Counted from the first letter of the stretch, positions 2,998 to 14,659 are shown. The stretch: DNA of 34,323 nt from Candidatus Glassbacteria bacterium RIFCSPLOWO2_12_FULL_58_11 (GCA_001780825.1 MFIX01000140.1:1-34323), one strand, 5' to 3'. Notes: a model not told the origin generated them from the sequence alone. Made by a program: numbers and translations.

Positions 2998-4257
2998 ATG
3001 AACTATCATATTGCTGATCCATCCCTGGCCAAGGGTGGCAAGAAAAGAATCGATTGGGCCGAGCACGATATGCCGGTGCTGCGCCTCGTGCGCGGGCGGT
3101 TCCAGAAGGAGAAGCCGCTGGAAGGCGTAAAAATGAGCGCCTGTCTGCATGTGACCGCCGAGACTGCGAACCTGTGCCGTACGCTGGCCGCGGGCGGCGC
3201 GGACCTGGTCCTGTGCGCCTCGAACCCGCTCAGCACCCAGGATGATGTCGCCGCCTCGCTGGTAAAAGATGATAAGTTCAAAGTATTCGCAGTCCGCGGT
3301 GAGGACCACGATACCTATTACTCCCATATTCACAGCGCGATCAAGCACAAGCCGACAATCACGATGGACGATGGGGCGGACCTGGTCTCCACGATACATG
3401 CCGAGTATCCCGCCCTGGTGGGCAAGATCATGGGCAGTATGGAAGAGACTACGACCGGGGTGATCCGCCTCAGAGCGATGGCCGTCGATGGGGCGCTGAA
3501 AATCCCGGTGTTCGCGGTCAATGATGCGCAGACCAAGCACCTGTTCGACAACCGCTACGGCACAGGCCAGTCAACTGTGGATGGGATTATCCGGGCGACG
3601 GATATTCTGCTGGCCGGAAAAAATGTGGTCGCCGCCGGATACGGTTTCTGCGGGCGCGGTTTTGCCATGCGCGCCCGCGGCATGGGCGCCAATGTCATTA
3701 TTACCGAGGTTGACCCGATCAAAGCGATCGAGGCGGTGATGGATGGCTACCGGGTGATGACCATGAAAGAAGCCGCGGTTGTCGGCGACCTGTTCTGCAC
3801 CCTGACCGGCGATATCAATGTTGTACGCCCCGAGCATTTCAAGCTGATGAAGGATGGAGCGATTGTCTGCAACAGCGGACATTTCAATGTCGAGCTCGAT
3901 CTGAAGGGCCTGGCCAAGCTGGCGGTCAAGGTCGAAAAGAACGTACGAAAAGAAGTGGATGCTTATTATCTCAAGGATGGCCGGAAAATTTTCGTACTCG
4001 GTGAGGGCCGGCTGATCAACCTGGCCGCTGCCGAGGGCCATCCGGCCTCGGTGATGGATATGAGCTTCGCGGTCCAGGCCCTGACCACCGAGTACGTGGT
4101 CAAAAACCACAAGAAATTCAGCCCCCGGGTGTATGAGGTCCCGGAAGCGATCGATAACTGGGTCGCCGAGCTGAAGCTGAAATCCATGGGCGTCTCGATT
4201 GATAAGCTTACCCCGGAACAGGTAAAATATCTCGCCAGCTGGACCATGGGAACCTGA
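2998..4257 (+). CDS. ahcY: Adenosylhomocysteinase (SAH hydrolase)
   Basis: Motifs [54 protein letters not shown]. Confidence 0.97.
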
Positions 4258-4394
4258 GCGCCGGGTTCCGGTATAATTTGTGCAGTCGTTAATTGGGGAT
4301 AAGCGGAAACGACAATTCAACGCTATCGGGCGATCCGCGGGGCAGGCAATCTGCCGGGGATCGTTAATCTTTGTAGAGCGGAAGCGAGCGAGCG

Positions 4395-4889
4395 ATGATA
4401 GAACTGACTATTTCCGGCCTCGGGATCGACAGCTCGAATAACTCGCCGGTGGTGCTGCTGAAAGAGAAAAGCGGCGAGAGGGTCCTGCCGATCTGGATCG
4501 GTCCCAGCGAGGCCAGCGCTATCGCCATGGAAATATCCGGCGTCAAATTCAAGCGGCCCCTGACCCACGACCTGTTCAAACAGGTGCTGCTCGACCTCGG
4601 GGTGGTCCTGGAGTCCGTTTTTATCAGCGAGCTCAAGGACAATACGTATTATGCCAGGATTTATCTGAAACACGAGGGAAAGCGTATCGAGCTCGATGCC
4701 CGTCCCAGCGACTCGATTGCCCTGGCCCTGCGGATGAAAGCGCCGATACATACCACCGAGGAGCTCCTGGACAGCGCCAGCAAAATCATGCCCAAAACTG
4801 TCGCCCAGACCGAGGAGTACGACCCGGAGGTCCTGCGCGAAACCCTGCGCAAAATGAACCCGGAAGATTTCGGTAAGTTTTCGCTCTGA
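4395..4889 (+). CDS. Bifunctional nuclease family protein (DUF151)
   Basis: LPIWIGPSEA, RPLTHDL, DARPSDSIALA. Confidence 0.92.
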   Translation: MIELTISGLGIDSSNNSPVVLLKEKSGERVLPIWIGPSEASAIAMEISGVKFKRPLTHDLFKQVLLDLGVVLESVFISELKDNTYYARIYLKHEGKRIELDARPSDSIALALRMKAPIHTTEELLDSASKIMPKTVAQTEEYDPEVLRETLRKMNPEDFGKFSL

Positions 4890-5034
4890 AAGACATTGAA
4901 TGGATTAGGCTGAAGCTCCTGATCCACGATGTCCATTCCCTGGCGCGATTTCGGCTTCGATTTACGCCGCAAGCGCGGTAGGAAAAACAGAAAAATAAAT
5001 TCGCGCCAAAACTATATATTCTGCTGTAATTTAC

Positions 5035-5063
5035 TTGACTGGTCCGCGGGGTTTGATTAAAAT
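5035..5063 (+). promoter_or_regulatory. Sigma70 promoter of the aro/leu operon
   Basis: TTGACT-17 nt-TAAAAT with AT-rich upstream sequence. Confidence 0.8.
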
Positions 5064-5130
5064 AAGATTATTCGGAAGGATACGGGATTCTGGAACAGGC
5101 TTCCCATTTGAATTGATGCTGGAGGTATCC

Positions 5131-5163
5131 GTGTTGTACTTGTACCTTCTTTTTCCAATCTAA
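5131..5163 (+). CDS. Attenuator leader peptide MLYLYLLFPI
   Basis: GGAGG at 5121-5125; GTG TTG TAC TTG TAC CTT CTT TTT CCA ATC TAA; in-frame ATG at 5116 is an alternative start. Confidence 0.8.
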   Translation: MLYLYLLFPI

Positions 5164-5257
5164 TATTTGATTTGATAGTGAGGGAAGGGACTGCCGGAAC
5201 TCGATCAAAAGTGCAATCAAGCGTGACCCGCCACTATCAAGCCGATAGTGGTTTTTT
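5145..5257 (+). promoter_or_regulatory. Transcription attenuator with mutually exclusive 1:2, 2:3 and 3:4 helices
   Basis: 1:2 CCTTCTTT (5145-5152)/AGGGAAGG (5181-5188) plus inner stem; 2:3 TTGATAGTG (5172-5180)/CACTATCAA (5232-5240); 3:4 is the terminator. Confidence 0.8.
5231..5257 (+). terminator. Attenuator terminator
   Basis: CCACTATC-aagcc-GATAGTGG followed by TTTTTT. Confidence 0.88.
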
Positions 5258-5368
5258 GTTATTCGGACCCTGTTTGGGGTGGCATTTTCATTAAAGGCTT
5301 TCCGGCCGAAATCGAAGATATTTATATCCTAACTTACTGAATACGCTTAAATTATAAGGTTCGCTCTC

Positions 5369-5665
5369 ATGGAAAACGGATTCGATGGCTGGCGGGATAA
5401 AATCGATGAGATCGACAAAAAACTGATCGAGCTTTTCAACAAGCGCGCGGAATACGCGATTGAAATCGGACGGCTCAAGAGAATCAAAGGCCTGCCGGTT
5501 TACGATCCGGAGCGGGAGAACATGATATACGAACAGTTGAAGCTGCGCAACCAGGGTCCGCTTTCCGATCCGGCCATCCGGCGCTTATTCGAGCGGATTA
5601 TCGACGAAACCCGCCGTCTCGAGCGCGAAATCTGTGAAACAGGGGGAGCGGGCGATGATAATTAG
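5369..5665 (+). CDS. Monofunctional chorismate mutase (AroQ class)
   Basis: RDKIDEIDKKLIELFNKR, IGRLK, PVYDPERE. Confidence 0.92.
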   Translation: MENGFDGWRDKIDEIDKKLIELFNKRAEYAIEIGRLKRIKGLPVYDPERENMIYEQLKLRNQGPLSDPAIRRLFERIIDETRRLEREICETGGAGDDN

Positions 5666-6674
5666 CATGCGCCACGATGCCTCCGAGCCGCAGATCCAGG
5701 CGGTGATCGAGAAACTCCAGAGCCTGAAGCTCGATGCGCACCGCTCGACCGGCCTCGACCGGACGATTATCGGCGCTATCGGCGATACCGCCCGGATCGA
5801 CACGCGGGATTTCGAGATTCTCGAGGGTGTCGATGACGTGGTGCGCATCTCCGCGCCCTACAAATTGGCCAGCCGCCAGTTCAAGCCTTCGGACACGGTG
5901 GTAAAAATCCGGGATGTGGCTATCGGGGGAAGGGAAGTGGTGGTCTCCGCCGGCCCCTGCTCGGTGGAAAGCCGCGAGCAGATCGATTTGATCGCCCGCC
6001 TGGTGGCCGCCGCAGGCGCGAAAATCCTGCGCGGTGGGGCTTTCAAGCCCCGCACCTCGCCTTATAGTTTTCAAGGCCTGGGCGAGGAGGGTTTGATAAT
6101 GATGCGCGAGGCCGCGGATAAATACGGCCTGGCTATCGCCAGCGAGGTGATGGACGCGAGCCAGATCGAGATGATGCTCCAGTACGTGGATATCTTTCAG
6201 GTAGGGGCGAGGAACATGCAGAATTTCACCCTCCTGCGCAGCCTGAGCAAGGTCAGCAAACCGGTACTTTTGAAAAGGGGGCTCTCGGCAACCATCGAGG
6301 AGTTACTGATGTCAGCCGAGTACATCCTTTCCGGGGGCAACACCCAGGTGATCCTGTGCGAGCGGGGGATTCGCACTTTCGAAACCTACACCCGCAACAC
6401 CATGGATATCTGCGCCATCCCGGTGGTCCATAAACTCAGCCACCTGCCGATTGTCGCTGACCCGAGCCACGGTACGGGCCTGCGCGACAAGGTGCTGCCG
6501 ATGGCGCGCGCGGCGATTGCCGCGGGGGCGGACGGCCTGCTGATCGAGGTCCATCACGAGCCGGACAAGGCGGTCAGTGACGGGGCCCAGAGCCTTTACC
6601 CCAATCAGTTCGACACACTGATGAAAGAGCTGGAAATAATCGCCCGGGCAATCGGCAGAACGCTCGCGGCCTGA
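5655..6674 (+). CDS. aroF: DAHP synthase type I-beta with N-terminal ACT-like domain, paralogue 1
   Basis: [48 protein letters not shown]; start set to ATG 5655 (MIISM) after GGGGGAG. Confidence 0.93.
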   Translation: MIISMRHDASEPQIQAVIEKLQSLKLDAHRSTGLDRTIIGAIGDTARIDTRDFEILEGVDDVVRISAPYKLASRQFKPSDTVVKIRDVAIGGREVVVSAGPCSVESREQIDLIARLVAAAGAKILRGGAFKPRTSPYSFQGLGEEGLIMMREAADKYGLAIASEVMDASQIEMMLQYVDIFQVGARNMQNFTLLRSLSKVSKPVLLKRGLSATIEELLMSAEYILSGGNTQVILCERGIRTFETYTRNTMDICAIPVVHKLSHLPIVADPSHGTGLRDKVLPMARAAIAAGADGLLIEVHHEPDKAVSDGAQSLYPNQFDTLMKELEIIARAIGRTLAA

Positions 6675-6717
6675 GATCACAGCCCGACGCTCCCATGAGC
6701 GGGGACAGGTGCTTATT

Positions 6718-6798
6718 ATGTTCGATTTCGCCATAAAAATTCGCTGGTTCTCAACTACCAGCTTGCGACTCCTCCCGCTGGATACGTGCCGCAGCTGA
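6718..6798 (+). promoter_or_regulatory. Candidate leuA leader uORF (MFDFAIKIRWFSTTSLRLLPLDTCRS) carrying an anti-SD
   Basis: Codons CTC CTC CCG contain TCCTCCC (6770-6776), the exact complement of the leuA SD GGGAGGA (6861-6867); AGGT lies 7 nt before the ATG. Confidence 0.5.
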
Positions 6799-6871
6799 TT
6801 ACTCTCGTGCTTTGGACTTATTCCGGAATTATTAACGAACTGAGAGATTCCGATTTCTCAGGGAGGATGAA

Positions 6872-8443
6872 ATGTCGAGTAAAAAACGGAAAATTATCAT
6901 TTTCGATACTACCCTGCGCGATGGCGAGCAAAGTCCCGGATGCAGCATGAATCTGGATGAAAAACTGGCCATGGCCCGCCAACTGGCCAGGCTCCAGGTC
7001 GATGTCATCGAGGCAGGGTTCCCGATCGCCAGCGACGGCGATTTCGAGGCGGTAAAGGCAATCGCCCAGCAGGTACGCAATGTCAGAGTGGCCGGCCTGG
7101 CCCGAGCGGTCAAGATCGATATCGATCGGGCCTGGGAGGCGCTGCAGTACGCCGCGCAGCCCCGGATCCACACTTTTATCGCCACCAGTGATATCCACCT
7201 CAAATATAAGCTGAAAAAAAGCCGCCAGGAGGTCCTGGATGCGGCCGTGGCCGCGGTGCAACTGGCCAAAAGCTATTGTGAGGACGTTGAGTTCTCCTGT
7301 GAGGATGCCGGCCGCACTGAGGACGATTACCTGGCGCAGGTGGTCAAGGCGACTATCGAGGCCGGCGCGACCACGATCAACATTCCCGACACGGTCGGCT
7401 ATGCGATCCCCAGCGAATGGGGCGAGCGTATGAAGCGACTGGTTAAGAACGTGCCTGAGCTGACCAGGAAAGCGGTGCTCAGCACGCATTGCCACAACGA
7501 TCTCGGCCTGGCGGTGTCCAATTCAATCGCCGCCTGCCAGAACGGCGCGGGCCAGGTGGAGTGCACGATCAATGGAATCGGCGAGCGGGCCGGCAATGCC
7601 TCGCTGGAGGAGTTCGTGATGGCCTGCCGGACCAGGCACGATCTGCTCGATTTCACCACAGGGATCGTGACCGAGGAAATTTATCCCACCAGCCGCCTGC
7701 TCACCAATACCACCGGAGTATTCGTGCAGCAGAACAAGGCAGTTGTCGGCAAGAACGCATTCGCCCATGAGGCCGGAATCCATCAGGACGGGATGCTGAA
7801 AGATTCGCTGACCTACGAGATCATGACTCCGCAATCGGTGGGGATAGTCAAGAGCAACATCGTCCTGGGAAAACATTCCGGCCGCCACGCCCTGGCCAAC
7901 CGGTTCTCCGAGCTGGGCTTTGATCTGGAGAAGACCGAGCTGGACAAGGCTTACAAACTGTTTACCAAGCTGGCGGACCAGAAGAAAAACATATCGGATG
8001 AGGACCTGCTGGCGATTATTCAGGATGGGATCCAGAATATTCCCGAAAAATGGCACATGAAGTACATCCAGACCATAGGCGGCAACCAGGTGGTCAGCTC
8101 GGCCGTGGTAGTCCTGATTGATATGGACACCAGCACCGAGGTCAAAGACGCTGCTCCCGGAGATGGGCCGGTCAGCGCCCTCTGTAAATCGATTGACCGG
8201 ATTGTCGGCCTTGAAGGTACGGTCACTGACTACCAGGTGCATTCGATCACCGAGGGCCGGGATGCGGTCGGCGAGGTGTTCCTGCGCGTTACTTTCGATA
8301 AAGTCGAGTATATGGGCAAAGCGGCGAGCACCGATGTGATGGATGCGACCGCCAGAGCTTATCTCAATGCGGTCAATAAGGCCTTGTACGCCAGGCAAAA
8401 CAGCAAGTCGAAGAAACGGGACAGGCATGGGGCGGGAGTCTGA
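6872..8443 (+). CDS. leuA: 2-isopropylmalate synthase
   Basis: [41 protein letters not shown]-terminal regulatory domain GDGPV. Confidence 0.95.
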
Positions 8444-8510
8444 AACCGGAGCCCGGTCCAGCCTGGACTCAATGAACGGAAAGGATAGATCAGTTAAAGG
8501 AGCCAGTCCG

Positions 8511-9908
8511 ATGGGTAAGACCATGTTTCAAAAAATCTGGGATGCGCATGTCGTCCACGAACAGGAGGGCATCACCATCCTCTATATCGACCGCCATCTG
8601 GTGCACGAGGTAACCTCTCCGCAGGCCTTCGAGGGCTTGCGGCTGACCGGCCGCAAAGTGCGCCGGCCTGAGTCTACCTATGCCGTACCGGACCACAACG
8701 TGCCGACCCGGGATCGCGACAAGGAGATCAGCGATCCCCTGTCCGCCAAACAGGTGAAAACCCTGCGCGACAACTGTCTTCAGTTCGGAATCACTCTCTT
8801 CGACATCGATGACATCCGTCAGGGTATCGTGCATGTGATCGCCCCTGAGCAGGGCCTGACCCTGCCCGGCATGACCATAGTCTGCGGGGATTCGCATACC
8901 GCCACCCACGGGGCATTCGGGGCGCTGGCTTTCGGGATCGGGACCTCTGAGGTGGAACACGTACTGGCCACGCAAACGTTGCAGCAGCGCAAACCCAACT
9001 CCATGTTAATCCGAGTCAACGGCACGCCGCGCGAGACTATCCGGCCGAAAGATGTCATCCTGGCGATAATCGGAAAAATCGGCACAGCCGGCGGCACGGG
9101 CTATGTGATCGAGTATGCCGGGGAGGTCGTGCGCCGGATGTCGATGGAAGGCCGGATGACTCTTTGCAACATGTCTATCGAGGCTGGAGCCCGGGCCGGG
9201 ATGGTGGCGCCGGATGAGACGACATACAAGTACCTCGAGAACCGGCCGTTCGCCCCGCGGGGCGAGCAGTTCGAGCGGGCGGTCGCGGCCTGGCGCACTC
9301 TGCCTTCCGATCCGGATGCCGCGTACGATAAAGTGGTCGACCTGGATATCGCGTATGTCAAGCCGCAAGTCACCTGGGGCACCTCGCCCGGCATGGTGAC
9401 CGATATCGATGGGAGCGTGCCCGATCCGGCTAAGATAACGGACCCCGCGCAGCGCAAGACCACTGAGCTGGCCCTCGAATACATGGGCCTGGAGCCGAAC
9501 ACTCCGATCCGGAACATCGCCCTGGACAAGGTGTTTATCGGTTCCTGCACCAATGCGCGGATCGAGGATTTGCGGGAAGTGGCGCAGTTCGTCAGGGGGC
9601 GGAAAGTGGCCGGCAGCGTGCAAGCCATGATCGTCCCGGGGAGCGGCCTGGTCAAAATGCAGGCCGAGCAGGAGGGTCTGGACAAAATATTTATCGAGGC
9701 GGGTTTCGAATGGCGGGATGCCGGCTGTTCAATGTGCCTCGCGATGAACGATGACCGTCTCCAGCCGGGTGAGCGCTGCGCCTCGACCAGCAACCGAAAT
9801 TTCGAGGGCCGTCAGGGTAAGGGCGGCCGGACCCACCTGGTGAGTCCGATTATGGCCGCCGCGGCCGCGCTGGCCGGGCATTTTACCGATCCACGGACCA
9901 CGAATTAG
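8511..9908 (+). CDS. leuC: 3-isopropylmalate dehydratase large subunit
   Basis: [39 protein letters not shown]; AAGGAG RBS before ATG 8511. Confidence 0.96.
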
Positions 9909-9948
9909 TATTGCCGTTTAACTTAACTGTCAATGCGAGCTTGAATAT

Positions 9949-10575
9949 ATGAAACCATTTGTGAGACTGACCGCGCTGGCGGCCCTGCTCGACCGTCAGA
10001 ATGTCGATACAGACCAGATCATTCCAAAGCAGTACCTCAAGAAAATCGAGCGGACCGGCTTCGGCCGTCACTTGTTCCATGACTGGCGCTATCTGGATGA
10101 GGAAGAAACCCGGCCCAATCCGGATTTTGTTCTCAACCAGCCCCGCTACCGGGGGGCCGGGATCCTGGTCGCCCGGGACAATTTCGGCTGCGGATCGAGC
10201 CGTGAGCACGCTCCCTGGGCCTTGCAGGAATACGGATTCCGCAGTATAATCGCGCCCAGTTTCGCCGACATTTTTTATAACAACTGTCTTAAGAACGGTA
10301 TGCTGCCGGTGGCCCTGAAAACCGGCGAGGTGGAGCGGCTCTTTGCGGAGGTCGGCGCAACTGAGGGCTGCAAACTTACCGTTGACCTCGAGAAGCAGGA
10401 GGTTTCATCTCCGCAGGGCTTGTGTTTCAAGTTCGAGATTTCGCCATTCTCCAAGGATTGCCTGCTCAGGGGACTGGACGATATCGGCTGGACTTTACAG
10501 TTCGCGCAAAAAATCGAGGATTTCGAGAAGGTATATCACCGGGAGAATCCCTGGCTGCTGGTCGGCCGGAGTTAG
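9949..10575 (+). CDS. leuD: 3-isopropylmalate dehydratase small subunit
   Basis: [30 protein letters not shown]. Confidence 0.96.
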
Positions 10576-10589
10576 CGAGGCGGCAAAAG

Positions 10590-10739
10590 AGGAATCAGAT
10601 TTAAGAAGTCAGTATTCAGAAGTCAGGAGTTAGAATTCAGGAAAAAAGCCTGAGACAGTAGCCGGCCCGGCTAATTCGTGAAATATCGGCTGTCCGTTTG
10701 AAATATCTTTTAACTTCTGACTTCTGGCTCCTATATTCT
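10590..10739. repeat. Inverted arrays of degenerate heptamers (AGAAGTC / GACTTCT)
   Basis: AGGAATC AGATTTA AGAAGTC AGTATTC AGAAGTC AGGAGTT AGAATTC (10590-10638) and AACTTCT GACTTCT GGCTCCT ATATTCT (10712-10739). Confidence 0.75.
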
Positions 10740-10833
10740 CTTTATCTTTGCTATTAAGTGGCAATTACTAATCTCAAGATGTTGCCCGTAATTAACTAAG
10801 TCGCAAAGAATAACAACCAGAGGAGCATTCCAG

Positions 10834-11901
10834 ATGGCGGCGAGCTATAAGATCGCGGTTCTGCCGGGCGATGGCACCGGTCCGGAAGTGGTCGCGGAGG
10901 CCTTGAAAGTCCTGAAGGCGGCCGGGAAAAAATACGATGTAAAATTTAATTTTACCGAGTTCAACTGGGGCGGAGAAAATTACAAGGCCACCGGAATTGT
11001 GTTGCCGGAAGATGGCATCGAAACGCTGAAAAAGTACGACTCGATCCTGCTGGGTGCAATCGGCCACCCGGATGTCAAGCCGGGCATTCTGGAAAAAGGG
11101 CTGCTGCTGGCCCTGCGCTTCGGGCTAGACCACTATATCAACCTGCGCCCGGTAAAGCTCTACCCTGGTGTCGCCACCCCGATCCGGGACAAGGGCCCGG
11201 AGGATATCGACTTCGTGGTGGTGCGCGAGAACACCGAGGGTCTCTATGCCGGCGCGGGCGGAAACTTGAAAAAAGGCACGCCGGATGAGGTGGCGATCCA
11301 GACCTCGATCAATACCCGCAAGGGCGTGGAGCGCTGCGTGCGCTATGCTTTCGATTACTGCCGCAAGCGCGACAAACGCAAGACCCTGACCCTGGTGGCA
11401 AAAACCAACGTGCTGACCTATGCCTCGGACCTCTGGGAGCGCACCTTCCATGAGGTGGGAAAGAAAGACTATCCCGACATCAAGCGTGAGTACGCCCACG
11501 TGGATGCCACCTGCATGTGGATGGTGAAAAACCCCGAGTGGTTCGATGTAATCGTGGTGGAAAACATGTTCGGCGACATTATCACGGACCTGGGCGCCAT
11601 GGTCCAGGGCGGTATGGGAATCGCCGCCGGGGGCAACATCAATCCCCAGGGAGTTTCGATGTATGAGCCGATCGGCGGCAGCGCCCCCAAATACACCGGC
11701 AAGGGCGTGATCAACCCGCTGGCCGCTATCAGCGCGGCCCAGATGATGGTTCTGGACCTCGGGCTGGAAAAGATGGCGCACGATATCGAGCAGGCGGTAA
11801 TGTGGGCCTGCGCGAACAAGATTAAAAACCTCGGCGCGGGTAAGATGGGTTACAGCACCAGCGAGGTCGGCGACCTGATCGCTGGAAAGATTGACGGATA
11901 G
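10834..11901 (+). CDS. leuB: 3-isopropylmalate dehydrogenase
   Basis: LPGDGTGPEV, INLRP, VRENTEGLY, NMFGDIITD, EPIGGSAP; follows leuACD. Confidence 0.9.
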   Translation: MAASYKIAVLPGDGTGPEVVAEALKVLKAAGKKYDVKFNFTEFNWGGENYKATGIVLPEDGIETLKKYDSILLGAIGHPDVKPGILEKGLLLALRFGLDHYINLRPVKLYPGVATPIRDKGPEDIDFVVVRENTEGLYAGAGGNLKKGTPDEVAIQTSINTRKGVERCVRYAFDYCRKRDKRKTLTLVAKTNVLTYASDLWERTFHEVGKKDYPDIKREYAHVDATCMWMVKNPEWFDVIVVENMFGDIITDLGAMVQGGMGIAAGGNINPQGVSMYEPIGGSAPKYTGKGVINPLAAISAAQMMVLDLGLEKMAHDIEQAVMWACANKIKNLGAGKMGYSTSEVGDLIAGKIDG

Positions 11902-11942
11902 ACCTGACTAACTTGCTTTACCCTGACTGAAAGCGGCGCTTG

Positions 11943-12962
11943 ATGATTATTGTCATGCAGGAAAACGCCACCCGCGAGCAGATTGACCACGTGTTCGAGC
12001 GGGTGCGCGAGCTGGGTTACAACGTACATCCGATCTACGGCAAGCAGCGCACGGTGATCGGCGCGATCGGGGATGAGCGCGGCAAGTTCCGCCTGAAATC
12101 CCTCGAATCGGTCCCCGGAGTCGAATCGGTCATCCCAATCCTCAAGCCCTATAAGCTGGTCGGCCGGGAGCTCAAGAAAGAGAAAACCGTGGTCCGGGTG
12201 GGCGAGGATGTCGCTTTCGGCAGCAAGCAGTTCGTGATAATCGCCGGACCCTGTTCGGTGGAGAGCCGCGAACAGATTATCGAGACCGCTGAGCGCGTAA
12301 AAAAGGCTGGGGCCCGCATGCTGCGCGGCGGAGCTTTCAAGCCCCGAACCTCGCCTTACAGTTTCCAGGGTCTGGAGGAGGAAGGGCTTGAGCTGCTGGC
12401 CGAGGCCCGGGAAAAGACCGGACTCAAGATTGTCACCGAGGTGATCACGCCCCAGGACCTGCCCCTCGTCTCCAGTTACGCGGATGTCCTGCAGGTGGGC
12501 GCCCGCAACATGCAAAATTTCGCCCTGCTCAAGCAGATTGGCCAGCTCGACAAGCCGGTGCTGCTCAAGCGCGGGCTGTCGGCGACTATCAACGAGTTCC
12601 TGATGTCCGCCGAATATATCCTGAGCGAGGGCAACCGCAACGTAATCCTCTGCGAGCGCGGGATTCGGACTTTCGAAACCGCGACACGCAACACGCTGGA
12701 CCTCTCCGCGGTCCCGCTGATCCTGAAAATGAGCCATTTGCCGATAATTGTCGATCCGAGCCACGGGACCGGGGTGCCGGACCTGGTGGCGCCGATGTCC
12801 AAGGCGGCGGCGGCCGCGGGCGCGGATGGGGTCATTGTCGAGGTGCACAGCAACCCGGAAACCGCCCTTTCGGATGGCGAGCAGTCGCTGGACCCGGATG
12901 CTTTCGACCGGCTGGTGGGCGCGCTCAAGCCGATACTCAAGGCAGAGGGGCGTACGCTTTGA
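11943..12962 (+). CDS. aroF: DAHP synthase type I-beta with ACT-like domain, paralogue 2
   Basis: Same catalytic motifs as paralogue 1; start ATG 11943 or TTG 11940. Confidence 0.93.
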
Positions 12963-12985
12963 AACGCGGACAATATTGAATGCAG

Positions 12986-13016
12986 AAAGGCTGTCCCGGA
13001 ATGGACGGCCTTTTTT
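12986..13016 (+). terminator. Rho-independent terminator closing the aro/leu operon
   Basis: AAAGGCTGTCC-cggaat-GGACGGCCTTTTTT. Confidence 0.88.
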
Positions 13017-13145
13017 ATCTGAGCGCAATTTTTCGGTTCTGCAGGCAGTCCTTCCAGGGAGGCGTCACTCCATTTCCCACTTAGACCTTTCACCGGCGCC
13101 CTCCATTCAGCCCCGCGCGCGGTCAGAGGCCGCGCCCCTCAAACA

Positions 13146-13174
13146 TTGACACCCGCCGCAGGCACTGATAAATT
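13146..13174 (+). promoter_or_regulatory. Sigma70 promoter of proS
   Basis: TTGACA-17 nt-TAAATT with extended TGn. Confidence 0.7.
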
Positions 13175-13210
13175 TAAACGATTTACCAAATCCTGAAAAT
13201 TCAACGGTAA

Positions 13211-14659
<1,449 letters not shown>

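Follow-up and report, generated by a model that had tools for sequence, protein, structure and literature searches.

Leucine, tyrosine and phenylalanine codons in one putative leader-peptide attenuator ahead of a fused aromatic and leucine operon

We analysed a stretch of 34,323 nucleotides (nt) from Candidatus Glassbacteria bacterium RIFCSPLOWO2_12_FULL_58_11 (GCA_001780825.1, MFIX01000140.1:1-34323), hereafter called the window, which carries an operon for aromatic amino acid and leucine biosynthesis preceded by a putative transcription attenuator. The operon encodes chorismate mutase, two 3-deoxy-D-arabino-heptulosonate 7-phosphate (DAHP) synthases and LeuACDB, a gene content that the initial annotation of the window had proposed from the sequence alone and on which Pfam and NCBIfam agree. 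The leader elements are housed in a spacer of 480 nt between a gene for a bifunctional-nuclease-domain protein (4395-4889) and the chorismate mutase gene (5369-5665), and their coordinates are collected in Table 1 together with those of the operon genes. The promoter, the GGAGG ribosome-binding site, the 10-codon leader and its run of seven leucine (Leu), tyrosine (Tyr) or phenylalanine (Phe) codons were all found as that annotation had described them.

The leader frame specifies the peptide M-L-Y-L-Y-L-L-F-P-I, in which 7/7 consecutive control codons stand for Leu, Tyr or Phe, three residues with a combined frequency of 0.178 in the genome. An in-frame ATG at 5117, which has no ribosome-binding site, could lengthen the frame by 5 codons. 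The choice of Leu codons had been said to differ from that of the neighbouring genes, and the counts agree: the 199 Leu codons of the 7 operon genes comprise 116 CTG, 48 CTC, 17 TTG, 13 CTT, 4 TTA and 1 CTA, and the Leu codon fractions in long frames of the whole genome are 0.51 for CTG, 0.28 for CTC, 0.12 for CTT and 0.06 for TTG. The minor Leu codons of the genome, TTG and CTT, are favoured in the leader. Comparison of the locus with four public DNA contig sets yielded one T>C difference at 5114 and was otherwise uninformative.

Downstream of the run, the transcript can adopt alternative hairpins. Region 1, which overlaps the control codons, is predicted to pair with the segment around region 2 (arm 2), and arm 2 is in turn perfectly complementary over 9 bp to region 3 (arm 3). 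The antiterminator formed by arms 2 and 3 and the 8-bp terminator, which is followed by T6 (U6 in the transcript), are mutually exclusive, nucleotides 5232-5238 being common to both. These three helices had also been proposed at the outset, the first of them now with a predicted energy (Table 1). The locus thus combines the four features by which an attenuator is recognised at the sequence level, namely a short frame with a ribosome-binding site, a cluster of cognate codons, a terminator before the first gene and a mutually exclusive antiterminator. The terminator pattern is unique within the window's own genome; in the contigs of the wider genome set, 6 of the matches listed (at least 120) hold the chorismate mutase locus and the others are unrelated terminators. 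A strict scan of the window's genome for a terminator, a repeated arm and a leader returned this locus only, but it also missed a trp leader (see below) and is uninformative on the frequency of attenuators.

Table 1. Features of the leader region and of the downstream operon in the window
Feature	Position	Strand	Description
Sigma-70-type promoter	5035-5063	+	-35 TTGACT 5035-5040, 17-nt spacer, -10 TAAAAT 5058-5063; 10/12 consensus matches
Shine-Dalgarno GGAGG of the leader frame	5121-5125	+	5 nt upstream of GTG 5131
Leader peptide frame	5131-5163	+	GTG start, 10 codons and TAA; homologous frames in 12/12 relatives
Control codons (leader codons 2-8)	5134-5154	+	4 Leu (TTG x2, CTT x2), 2 Tyr (TAC), 1 Phe (TTT)
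Region 1, anti-antiterminator strand	5145-5160	+	Predicted pairing with 5169-5184, -9.9 kcal/mol
Region 2, antiterminator 5' arm (arm 2)	5172-5180	+	9/9 complementary to 5232-5240
Region 3, antiterminator 3' arm (arm 3)	5232-5240	+	Bases common to the terminator 5' arm
Intrinsic terminator	5231-5257	+	Arms 5231-5238/5244-5251 (8/8 paired), 5-nt loop, T6 5252-5257
Chorismate mutase, AroQ type, 98 aa	5369-5665	+	Pfam CM_2, 2.7e-25; only CM_2 found in the genome
DAHP synthase 1	5634-6674	+	N-terminal ferredoxin-like regulatory domain; NF006421, 496.9 bits (cut-off 335)
Second upstream frame	6718-6798	+	26 codons here, first 16 conserved; 74 nt upstream of leuA
LeuA, 2-isopropylmalate synthase	6872-8443	+	Allosteric LeuA_dimer domain; NF002086, 771.6 bits (cut-off 532)
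LeuC	8511-9908 (start approximate)	+	TIGR00170, 793 bits (cut-off 560)
LeuD	9949-10575	+	Pfam and NCBIfam; sole small subunit in the genome
LeuB	10834-11901	+	NF002898, 523.7 bits (cut-off 393); sole Iso_dh-family gene found in the genome
DAHP synthase 2	11940-12962	+	57% identical to synthase 1, same domains (Pfam, NCBIfam)
Hairpin and T6, probable operon end	12989-13016	+	Read from the sequence; absent from the scan output

Conservation of this arrangement was assessed in 13 species genomes of one family and eight genera, that is, the window's genome and 12 others of the same class, which bring in 7 further genera. Loci of the unpublished genomes G056, G096, G156, G203 and G204 were kept outside all tallies here and below, these genomes being present only in genome totals. 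Upstream of chorismate mutase, 12/12 of the other genomes have a -35 box in the equivalent position, a Leu/Tyr/Phe-rich frame, arm 2, a gap and the terminator, and the operon recurs with them; finding the leader in related genomes had been among the checks proposed by the initial annotation. The gap between arms 2 and 3 is constant in length (46-50 nt) and unconserved in sequence; outside the arms, only the leader codons are conserved, at the amino-acid level and in variable order. Two forms of the leader exist. In four genera (six genomes) it is short, with 10-12 codons, a purine-rich Shine-Dalgarno equivalent 5-8 nt upstream of the start and a stop 8-10 nt short of arm 2. The remaining four genera (seven genomes) have a long form, with 21-50 codons that run through arm 2 and a stop 8-16 nt past the start of that arm, so that a ribosome at its end would cover arm 2 outright. 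Codon changes among leaders are largely synonymous (TTG, CTT, CTC, CTG, CTA and TTA for Leu, TAC and TAT for Tyr), and the genera arrange Leu, Tyr and Phe in different orders yet retain the composition. Synonymous changes and variable order together suggest that selection acts on which tRNAs are called rather than on the peptide or the RNA sequence alone. Of the 11 loci fetched, 8 had the complete gene order between chorismate mutase and DAHP synthase 2, the remaining 3 being cut by contig ends, and the operon parts absent from G004 and G008 were recovered on other contigs. Public records with the same locus are labelled Gemmatimonadales or Candidatus Glassbacteria, and one is labelled 'archaeon'. 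A chorismate mutase search of metagenomes gave 80 loci that were kept, 10 of which are class-like, and 8/10 of these have the leader and the terminator.

The two perfect helices were examined on an alignment of 18 sequences (A2), with the partner arm slid along the alignment as a control. For the antiterminator, 89.8% of cells were paired, compared with 27-46% in the slid controls; two of its pairs are altered on both sides, and its covariation score exceeded those of 500/500 shuffles. For the terminator, 91.7% of cells were paired, compared with 33-53%. Most arm positions are invariant, as expected where one strand has to fit two partners. The predicted folds of 8/13 genomes (all 6 short-leader genomes and 2/3 genomes of genus g4) include a pairing analogous to that of regions 1 and 2, in which Tyr/Leu codons join the tail of arm 2; the register of this predicted pairing varies among genera.

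Since the operon never varies within the class, the relation between leader content and operon content was tested outside it. For leucine, we used 20 of the 21 leuA loci returned from other families of the phylum (L328, from an unpublished genome, was dropped). Their best short upstream frames are Leu/Val-rich, with 10-residue cores containing Leu at 0.57, Val at 0.24, Ile at 0.04, Tyr at 0.00 and Phe at 0.01; Tyr is absent from 20/20 cores, and a GC-rich terminator lies about 50-70 nt upstream of leuA in 16/20 loci. For the aromatic branch, 29 of the 30 DAHP synthase loci returned from other classes of the phylum were used (L341 was dropped for the same reason). By a crude rule, which calls for a terminator and for 3 or more aromatic residues out of 8 and leaves several near misses uncounted, aromatic leaders precede 9/29 of these loci (L339-L368), with cores containing Tyr at 0.31, Phe at 0.18, Trp at 0.06 and Leu at 0.00. 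In the window's own class, where the operon is fused, the leader cores contain approximately 0.37 Leu, 0.27 Tyr, 0.09 Phe and 0.05 Val. Leader codons therefore track operon content, as the initial annotation had asked to be tested: Leu/Val before leuA, Tyr/Phe/Trp before DAHP synthase and a mixture before the fused operon.

A further locus, L128, found in a metagenome-assembled genome labelled KSB1 (7404-7620, minus strand), has the same arms, which align gap-free, and the same spacing between arms 2 and 3. Its leader of 40 codons has a single Leu overall, and 12 consecutive codons of it hold 8 Tyr and 1 Phe. This platform precedes an eight-gene aromatic operon that extends downstream to about position 327 of L128 and encodes chorismate mutase, a DAHP synthase with the same regulatory domain, prephenate dehydrogenase and five shikimate-pathway enzymes, namely 5-enolpyruvylshikimate-3-phosphate (EPSP) synthase, shikimate dehydrogenase, shikimate kinase, dehydroquinate synthase and dehydroquinase; no leu genes were found in it. 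The presence of a Tyr-run leader on the same arms indicates that the platform works with a Tyr-only sensor and that Leu codons occur where leu genes do. A search for the pattern in the phylum of L128 gave matches in 3/167 genomes: that of L128 itself, one with a His-codon leader before a hisG-like gene (L377, see below), and one whose match is not an attenuator.

We propose from these comparisons that transcription at the window's leader region is attenuated by a translating ribosome in the classical leader-peptide manner, the switch opening when Leu, Tyr or Phe runs short, and we estimate the probability of this reading at about 0.75. The same reading had been put forward by the initial annotation; the conservation in 12/12 relatives, the composition tracking and the L128 platform support it. 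Transcription would start a few bases past the -10 box, and the 10-codon leader would be translated as RNA polymerase proceeds. With tRNA-Leu, tRNA-Tyr and tRNA-Phe all charged, the ribosome would reach the stop codon (5161-5163) and overlap the first bases of region 2; alternatively, region 1 would re-pair with region 2 after ribosome release. Region 3 would then be free for region 4, and the terminator would halt transcription. If any one of the three tRNAs was poorly charged, the ribosome would stall within the control codons, where it would occupy region 1 with its leading edge short of 5172, in a geometry that is taken from general knowledge of ribosome footprints. Arm 2 would be left free to form the 9-bp antiterminator with arm 3, no terminator would form and the polymerase would enter the operon. 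The three kinds of codons are intermixed within one stall window, so that a lack of any single amino acid among the three should open the switch, and we infer an either/or (OR) logic. Pathway-specific fine control would be left to the allosteric domains of the enzymes, ferredoxin-like on both DAHP synthases and LeuA_dimer on LeuA, feedback inhibition restraining overproduction of the other products. The customary regulatory domains are present on all three enzyme families that stand at the pathway entries.

Several observations weigh against this proposal. The ribosome-binding sites before the longer leaders of genera g3 and g4 are weak. The automatic choice of frames behind the composition figures was wrong in 1/13 class genomes (G003) and fell on longer in-frame starts in 3. 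At its 3' end, the run's Tyr (UAC) and Leu (CUU/CUC) codons themselves supply the partner strand for the tail of arm 2, so that structure rather than sensing may account for part of their conservation. Two near-identical class-like metagenome contigs (L216 and L217) have no Leu/Tyr/Phe leader. Co-transcription of leuA-B and DAHP synthase 2 with the first two genes is presumed across operon-internal spacers of 198 nt and 259 nt, the latter with a promoter-like site at 10710-10737 (9/12 matches). Experiments in other bacteria also call for caution: in the available part of a review, the aroR operon of Corynebacterium glutamicum was unaffected by Tyr supply despite a Tyr codon in its leader (PMC11802643), and replacing codons in the leuA and ilvB leaders of actinobacteria was without effect according to the accessible portion of another report (PMC1262725). 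Finally, folding of the entire region (193 nt) gives an unremarkable energy (z = -0.49), and the six-frame genome contains 17 Leu/Tyr/Phe runs of at least 7 residues with at least 2 Tyr. Of the 16 runs other than the leader, 10 lie in stop-to-stop frames of at least 76 codons and 6 in frames of at most 54 codons; inspection of these six, the 10 in longer frames falling outside it, revealed none that is leader-like. Such single-sequence statistics are undecisive, and it is the conservation in 12/12 relatives that decides.

The pairing of the 3'-end codons with the arm 2 tail, together with the missing effect of Tyr on aroR as far as that source could be consulted, raises the possibility that the locus is a real ribosome-mediated attenuator that senses one pathway only, either Tyr/Phe, as in the KSB1-type relative, or Leu, the other codons being passengers kept as region 1. 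We consider this unlikely. Leu and Tyr codons that lie ahead of the paired stretch persist as well, through synonymous changes. Elsewhere in the phylum, Leu is at 0.00 in the 9 aromatic cores, and Tyr is missing from all the leuA cores. Moreover the L128 platform works without a Leu run, which suggests that the Leu codons appeared together with the leu genes.

We regard as quite improbable that the switch is run by a factor other than the ribosome (an RNA-binding protein, an uncharged tRNA or a small ligand) and that the short frame is untranslated. The weak ribosome-binding sites of g3 and g4 would fit, and a protein factor was proposed for actinobacterial LEU elements on the grounds that codon changes had no effect (PMC1262725, consulted in part). 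Against it, no T-box or riboswitch family matched 4000-13500 at E values up to 10, or the 12 related loci at E values up to 0.1, and what is conserved outside the arms is limited to codons, kept as amino acids in variable order, the sequence between arms 2 and 3 being unconserved. There is similarly little to be said for an arrest peptide, whose amino-acid sequence would stall the ribosome on some signal independent of tRNA charging. Conservation at the peptide level speaks for it, as does a Pro that the 6 short-leader genomes have two codons ahead of the stop; but residue order differs between genera with only composition kept, the long-leader genera have no Pro-x-stop ending, and composition follows the products of the operon. 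That the arrangement is due to chance, or is merely the terminator of the upstream nuclease-domain gene, is hardly credible despite the z-score and the 17 similar runs, since a promoter lies between the end of that gene (4889) and the leader and the arrangement recurs in 12/12 relatives and in another phylum-level lineage, a conservation which already contradicts this reading.

The spacer between DAHP synthase 1 and leuA contains a second conserved upstream frame (Table 1), whose first 16 codons are kept in 13/13 aligned spacers. The extra states at its three codon positions number 10, 9 and 26, changes being mostly at the third position. Trp is found at codon 10 in 12/13 sequences and a TTG Leu codon at codon 16 in 12/13, with the stop directly after it in one genus. 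The 26-residue query matched 10/12 class relatives, and a search through the phylum gave only noise outside the class. No conserved RNA structure was detected in this spacer by consensus folding. The frame is not Leu-rich and is therefore not a classical Leu leader; one may speculate that it exerts a peptide-dependent control of leuA. A wider picture can be drawn in which one hairpin platform is common to two phylum-level lineages and the sensor alone was rewritten, from a Tyr run to interleaved Leu/Tyr/Phe codons once leuACDB had joined, which would make it a natural, evolvable OR gate across unrelated pathways, with the frame before leuA as a peptide-dependent second tier that gives the leu genes their own control within the common transcript. 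We consider this picture as a whole less likely than not.

Leaders that carry codons for several amino acids are known from Escherichia coli: thr (Thr and Ile), ilvGMEDA (Ile, Val and Leu) and ilvBN, for which shortage of any one amino acid is taken to relieve termination. The window's leader is like them in this respect, but the amino acids of the thr and ilv leaders belong to one branched pathway, whereas Leu and Tyr/Phe have no common biosynthetic step in the window's operon. To our knowledge, every known leader reports on one pathway or one branched family. Genes of different amino-acid pathways also share one transcription unit in the aromatic supraoperon of Bacillus subtilis, which includes hisC; unlike the window's operon, it is controlled by the TRAP protein and promoters, without a mixed-codon leader. 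The L128 attenuator, which we do not know to have been described, is alike in its arms, spacing, chorismate mutase and DAHP synthase domains, and differs in having no Leu run and an aromatic-only operon. Rare Leu codons are used in E. coli leuL.

This leader and those of Streptococcus leuA are described, in the part of the source available, as short frames upstream of leuA whose consecutive Leu codons overlap an anti-antiterminator; antiterminator and terminator hairpins come next (PMC5314783). The window's predicted architecture is similar as far as this description goes; it differs in that its Leu codons are interleaved with Tyr/Phe and that the first genes are those for chorismate mutase and DAHP synthase, not leuA, and no sequence or Rfam similarity between them was found. 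In C. glutamicum, the aroR leader before aroF (DAHP synthase) contains Phe-Tyr-Phe and its stalling raises transcription, only Phe limitation being reported as active in the accessible text (PMC11802643). It shares with the window an aromatic-codon leader ahead of a DAHP synthase operon but has, in the same text, neither Leu codons nor leu genes, and it resembles rather the Tyr/Phe/Trp leaders of other classes in the window's phylum (9/29 loci). The same partly available source reports that C. glutamicum LtbR represses both leuCD and the trp operon (PMC11802643). On that account LtbR is a precedent for a joint control of leucine and aromatic genes, with the difference that it is a protein repressor acting on separate operons and on Trp, whereas the window would have one RNA switch, a fused operon and Tyr/Phe.

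No Rfam leader family (Leu, Thr, Phe, His, Trp, leu/phe) matched 5000-5300 at E values up to 10 or the 12 related loci at E values up to 0.1, and the T-box model had no match within the ranges given above. A literature search, limited to article texts with few subscription journals among them, returned no leader combining Leu with aromatic codons and no mention of leader peptides in the window's phylum. Within that coverage it agrees with the initial annotation, which had not recognised such a cross-pathway leader as described, and a Leu-plus-aromatic leader is probably undescribed. A single leader would thus appear to report on two unrelated pathways, with a codon content that can be followed as operon content changes. 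It offers a testable case in which the specificity of an RNA switch is rewritten by few codon changes on a fixed expression platform, and a compact natural part for multi-input amino-acid sensors; it would also extend leader-peptide attenuation to an uncultured lineage (Gemmatimonadales or Candidatus Glassbacteria, depending on the label).

As to the operon itself, LeuA has no other full-length family member in the genome. For chorismate mutase, LeuA, LeuD and LeuB no second copy was found in a genome that is 91% complete, and they are therefore taken to serve housekeeping rather than a side pathway. Elsewhere in the genome are genes for prephenate dehydratase, prephenate dehydrogenase and a third DAHP synthase, and no leader was seen there upstream of the third DAHP synthase (C239) or of ilvB (C121). 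The leuD-leuB spacer (10576-10833), of 259 nt in the window, is AT-rich and measures only about 75-160 nt in relatives. The hairpin at the probable operon end aligns to the terminator part of the Rfam Thr_leader model with 25 bits, below the gathering score, and is followed on its 3' side by a promoter-like site and then by the gene for prolyl-tRNA synthetase.

Some loci depart from the common pattern. All operon genes are split into several frames in L016 (G005:C6:141700-152700), from a genome that is 76% complete; these frameshifts are probably assembly errors rather than decay. In L026 (G010:C60), the spacer between DAHP synthase 1 and leuA measures about 570 nt, compared with about 200 nt, and the insert includes an inverted repeat. 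L216 (2600-3000) and L217 (1-350) have an extra gene of 278 codons after the nuclease gene and, about 320 nt upstream of chorismate mutase, a short Phe/Cys-rich frame that overlies two tandem hairpins with T runs; both contigs stop short of the position of leuA. In 70 high-GC metagenome loci (L224-L293), genes for a chorismate mutase (51-62% identical) and a DAHP synthase directly follow a gene with a TrpA-like end; these 70 loci have neither leader nor terminator ahead of chorismate mutase and no leuA after DAHP synthase, and are therefore of no use for the codon-tracking test.

Other probable leaders were encountered. In the leuA loci of other families (L318-L338), Leu/Val-rich frames lie 160-200 nt upstream of leuA and are probably branched-chain leaders, judging by their composition; none of the 8 loci of this set that were scanned matched Rfam. 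In L377 (G312:C200, minus strand), His codons form a run within a short frame; a terminator comes next, with a stem that matches the terminator arms of the window, and the start of a hisG-like gene follows. It is probably a His attenuator, and the terminator stem that it has in common with the window may be a coincidence. In the window's own genome, L369 (G000:C56, about 9880-10050) lies before a trpE-like gene. It has a promoter-like site and a frame of 35 codons, two of which are Trp codons set two codons apart; there is also a GC-rich hairpin, followed by T5. These features are those of a probable Trp attenuator, which suggests that leader-peptide attenuation is used by this organism and that Trp is handled separately.

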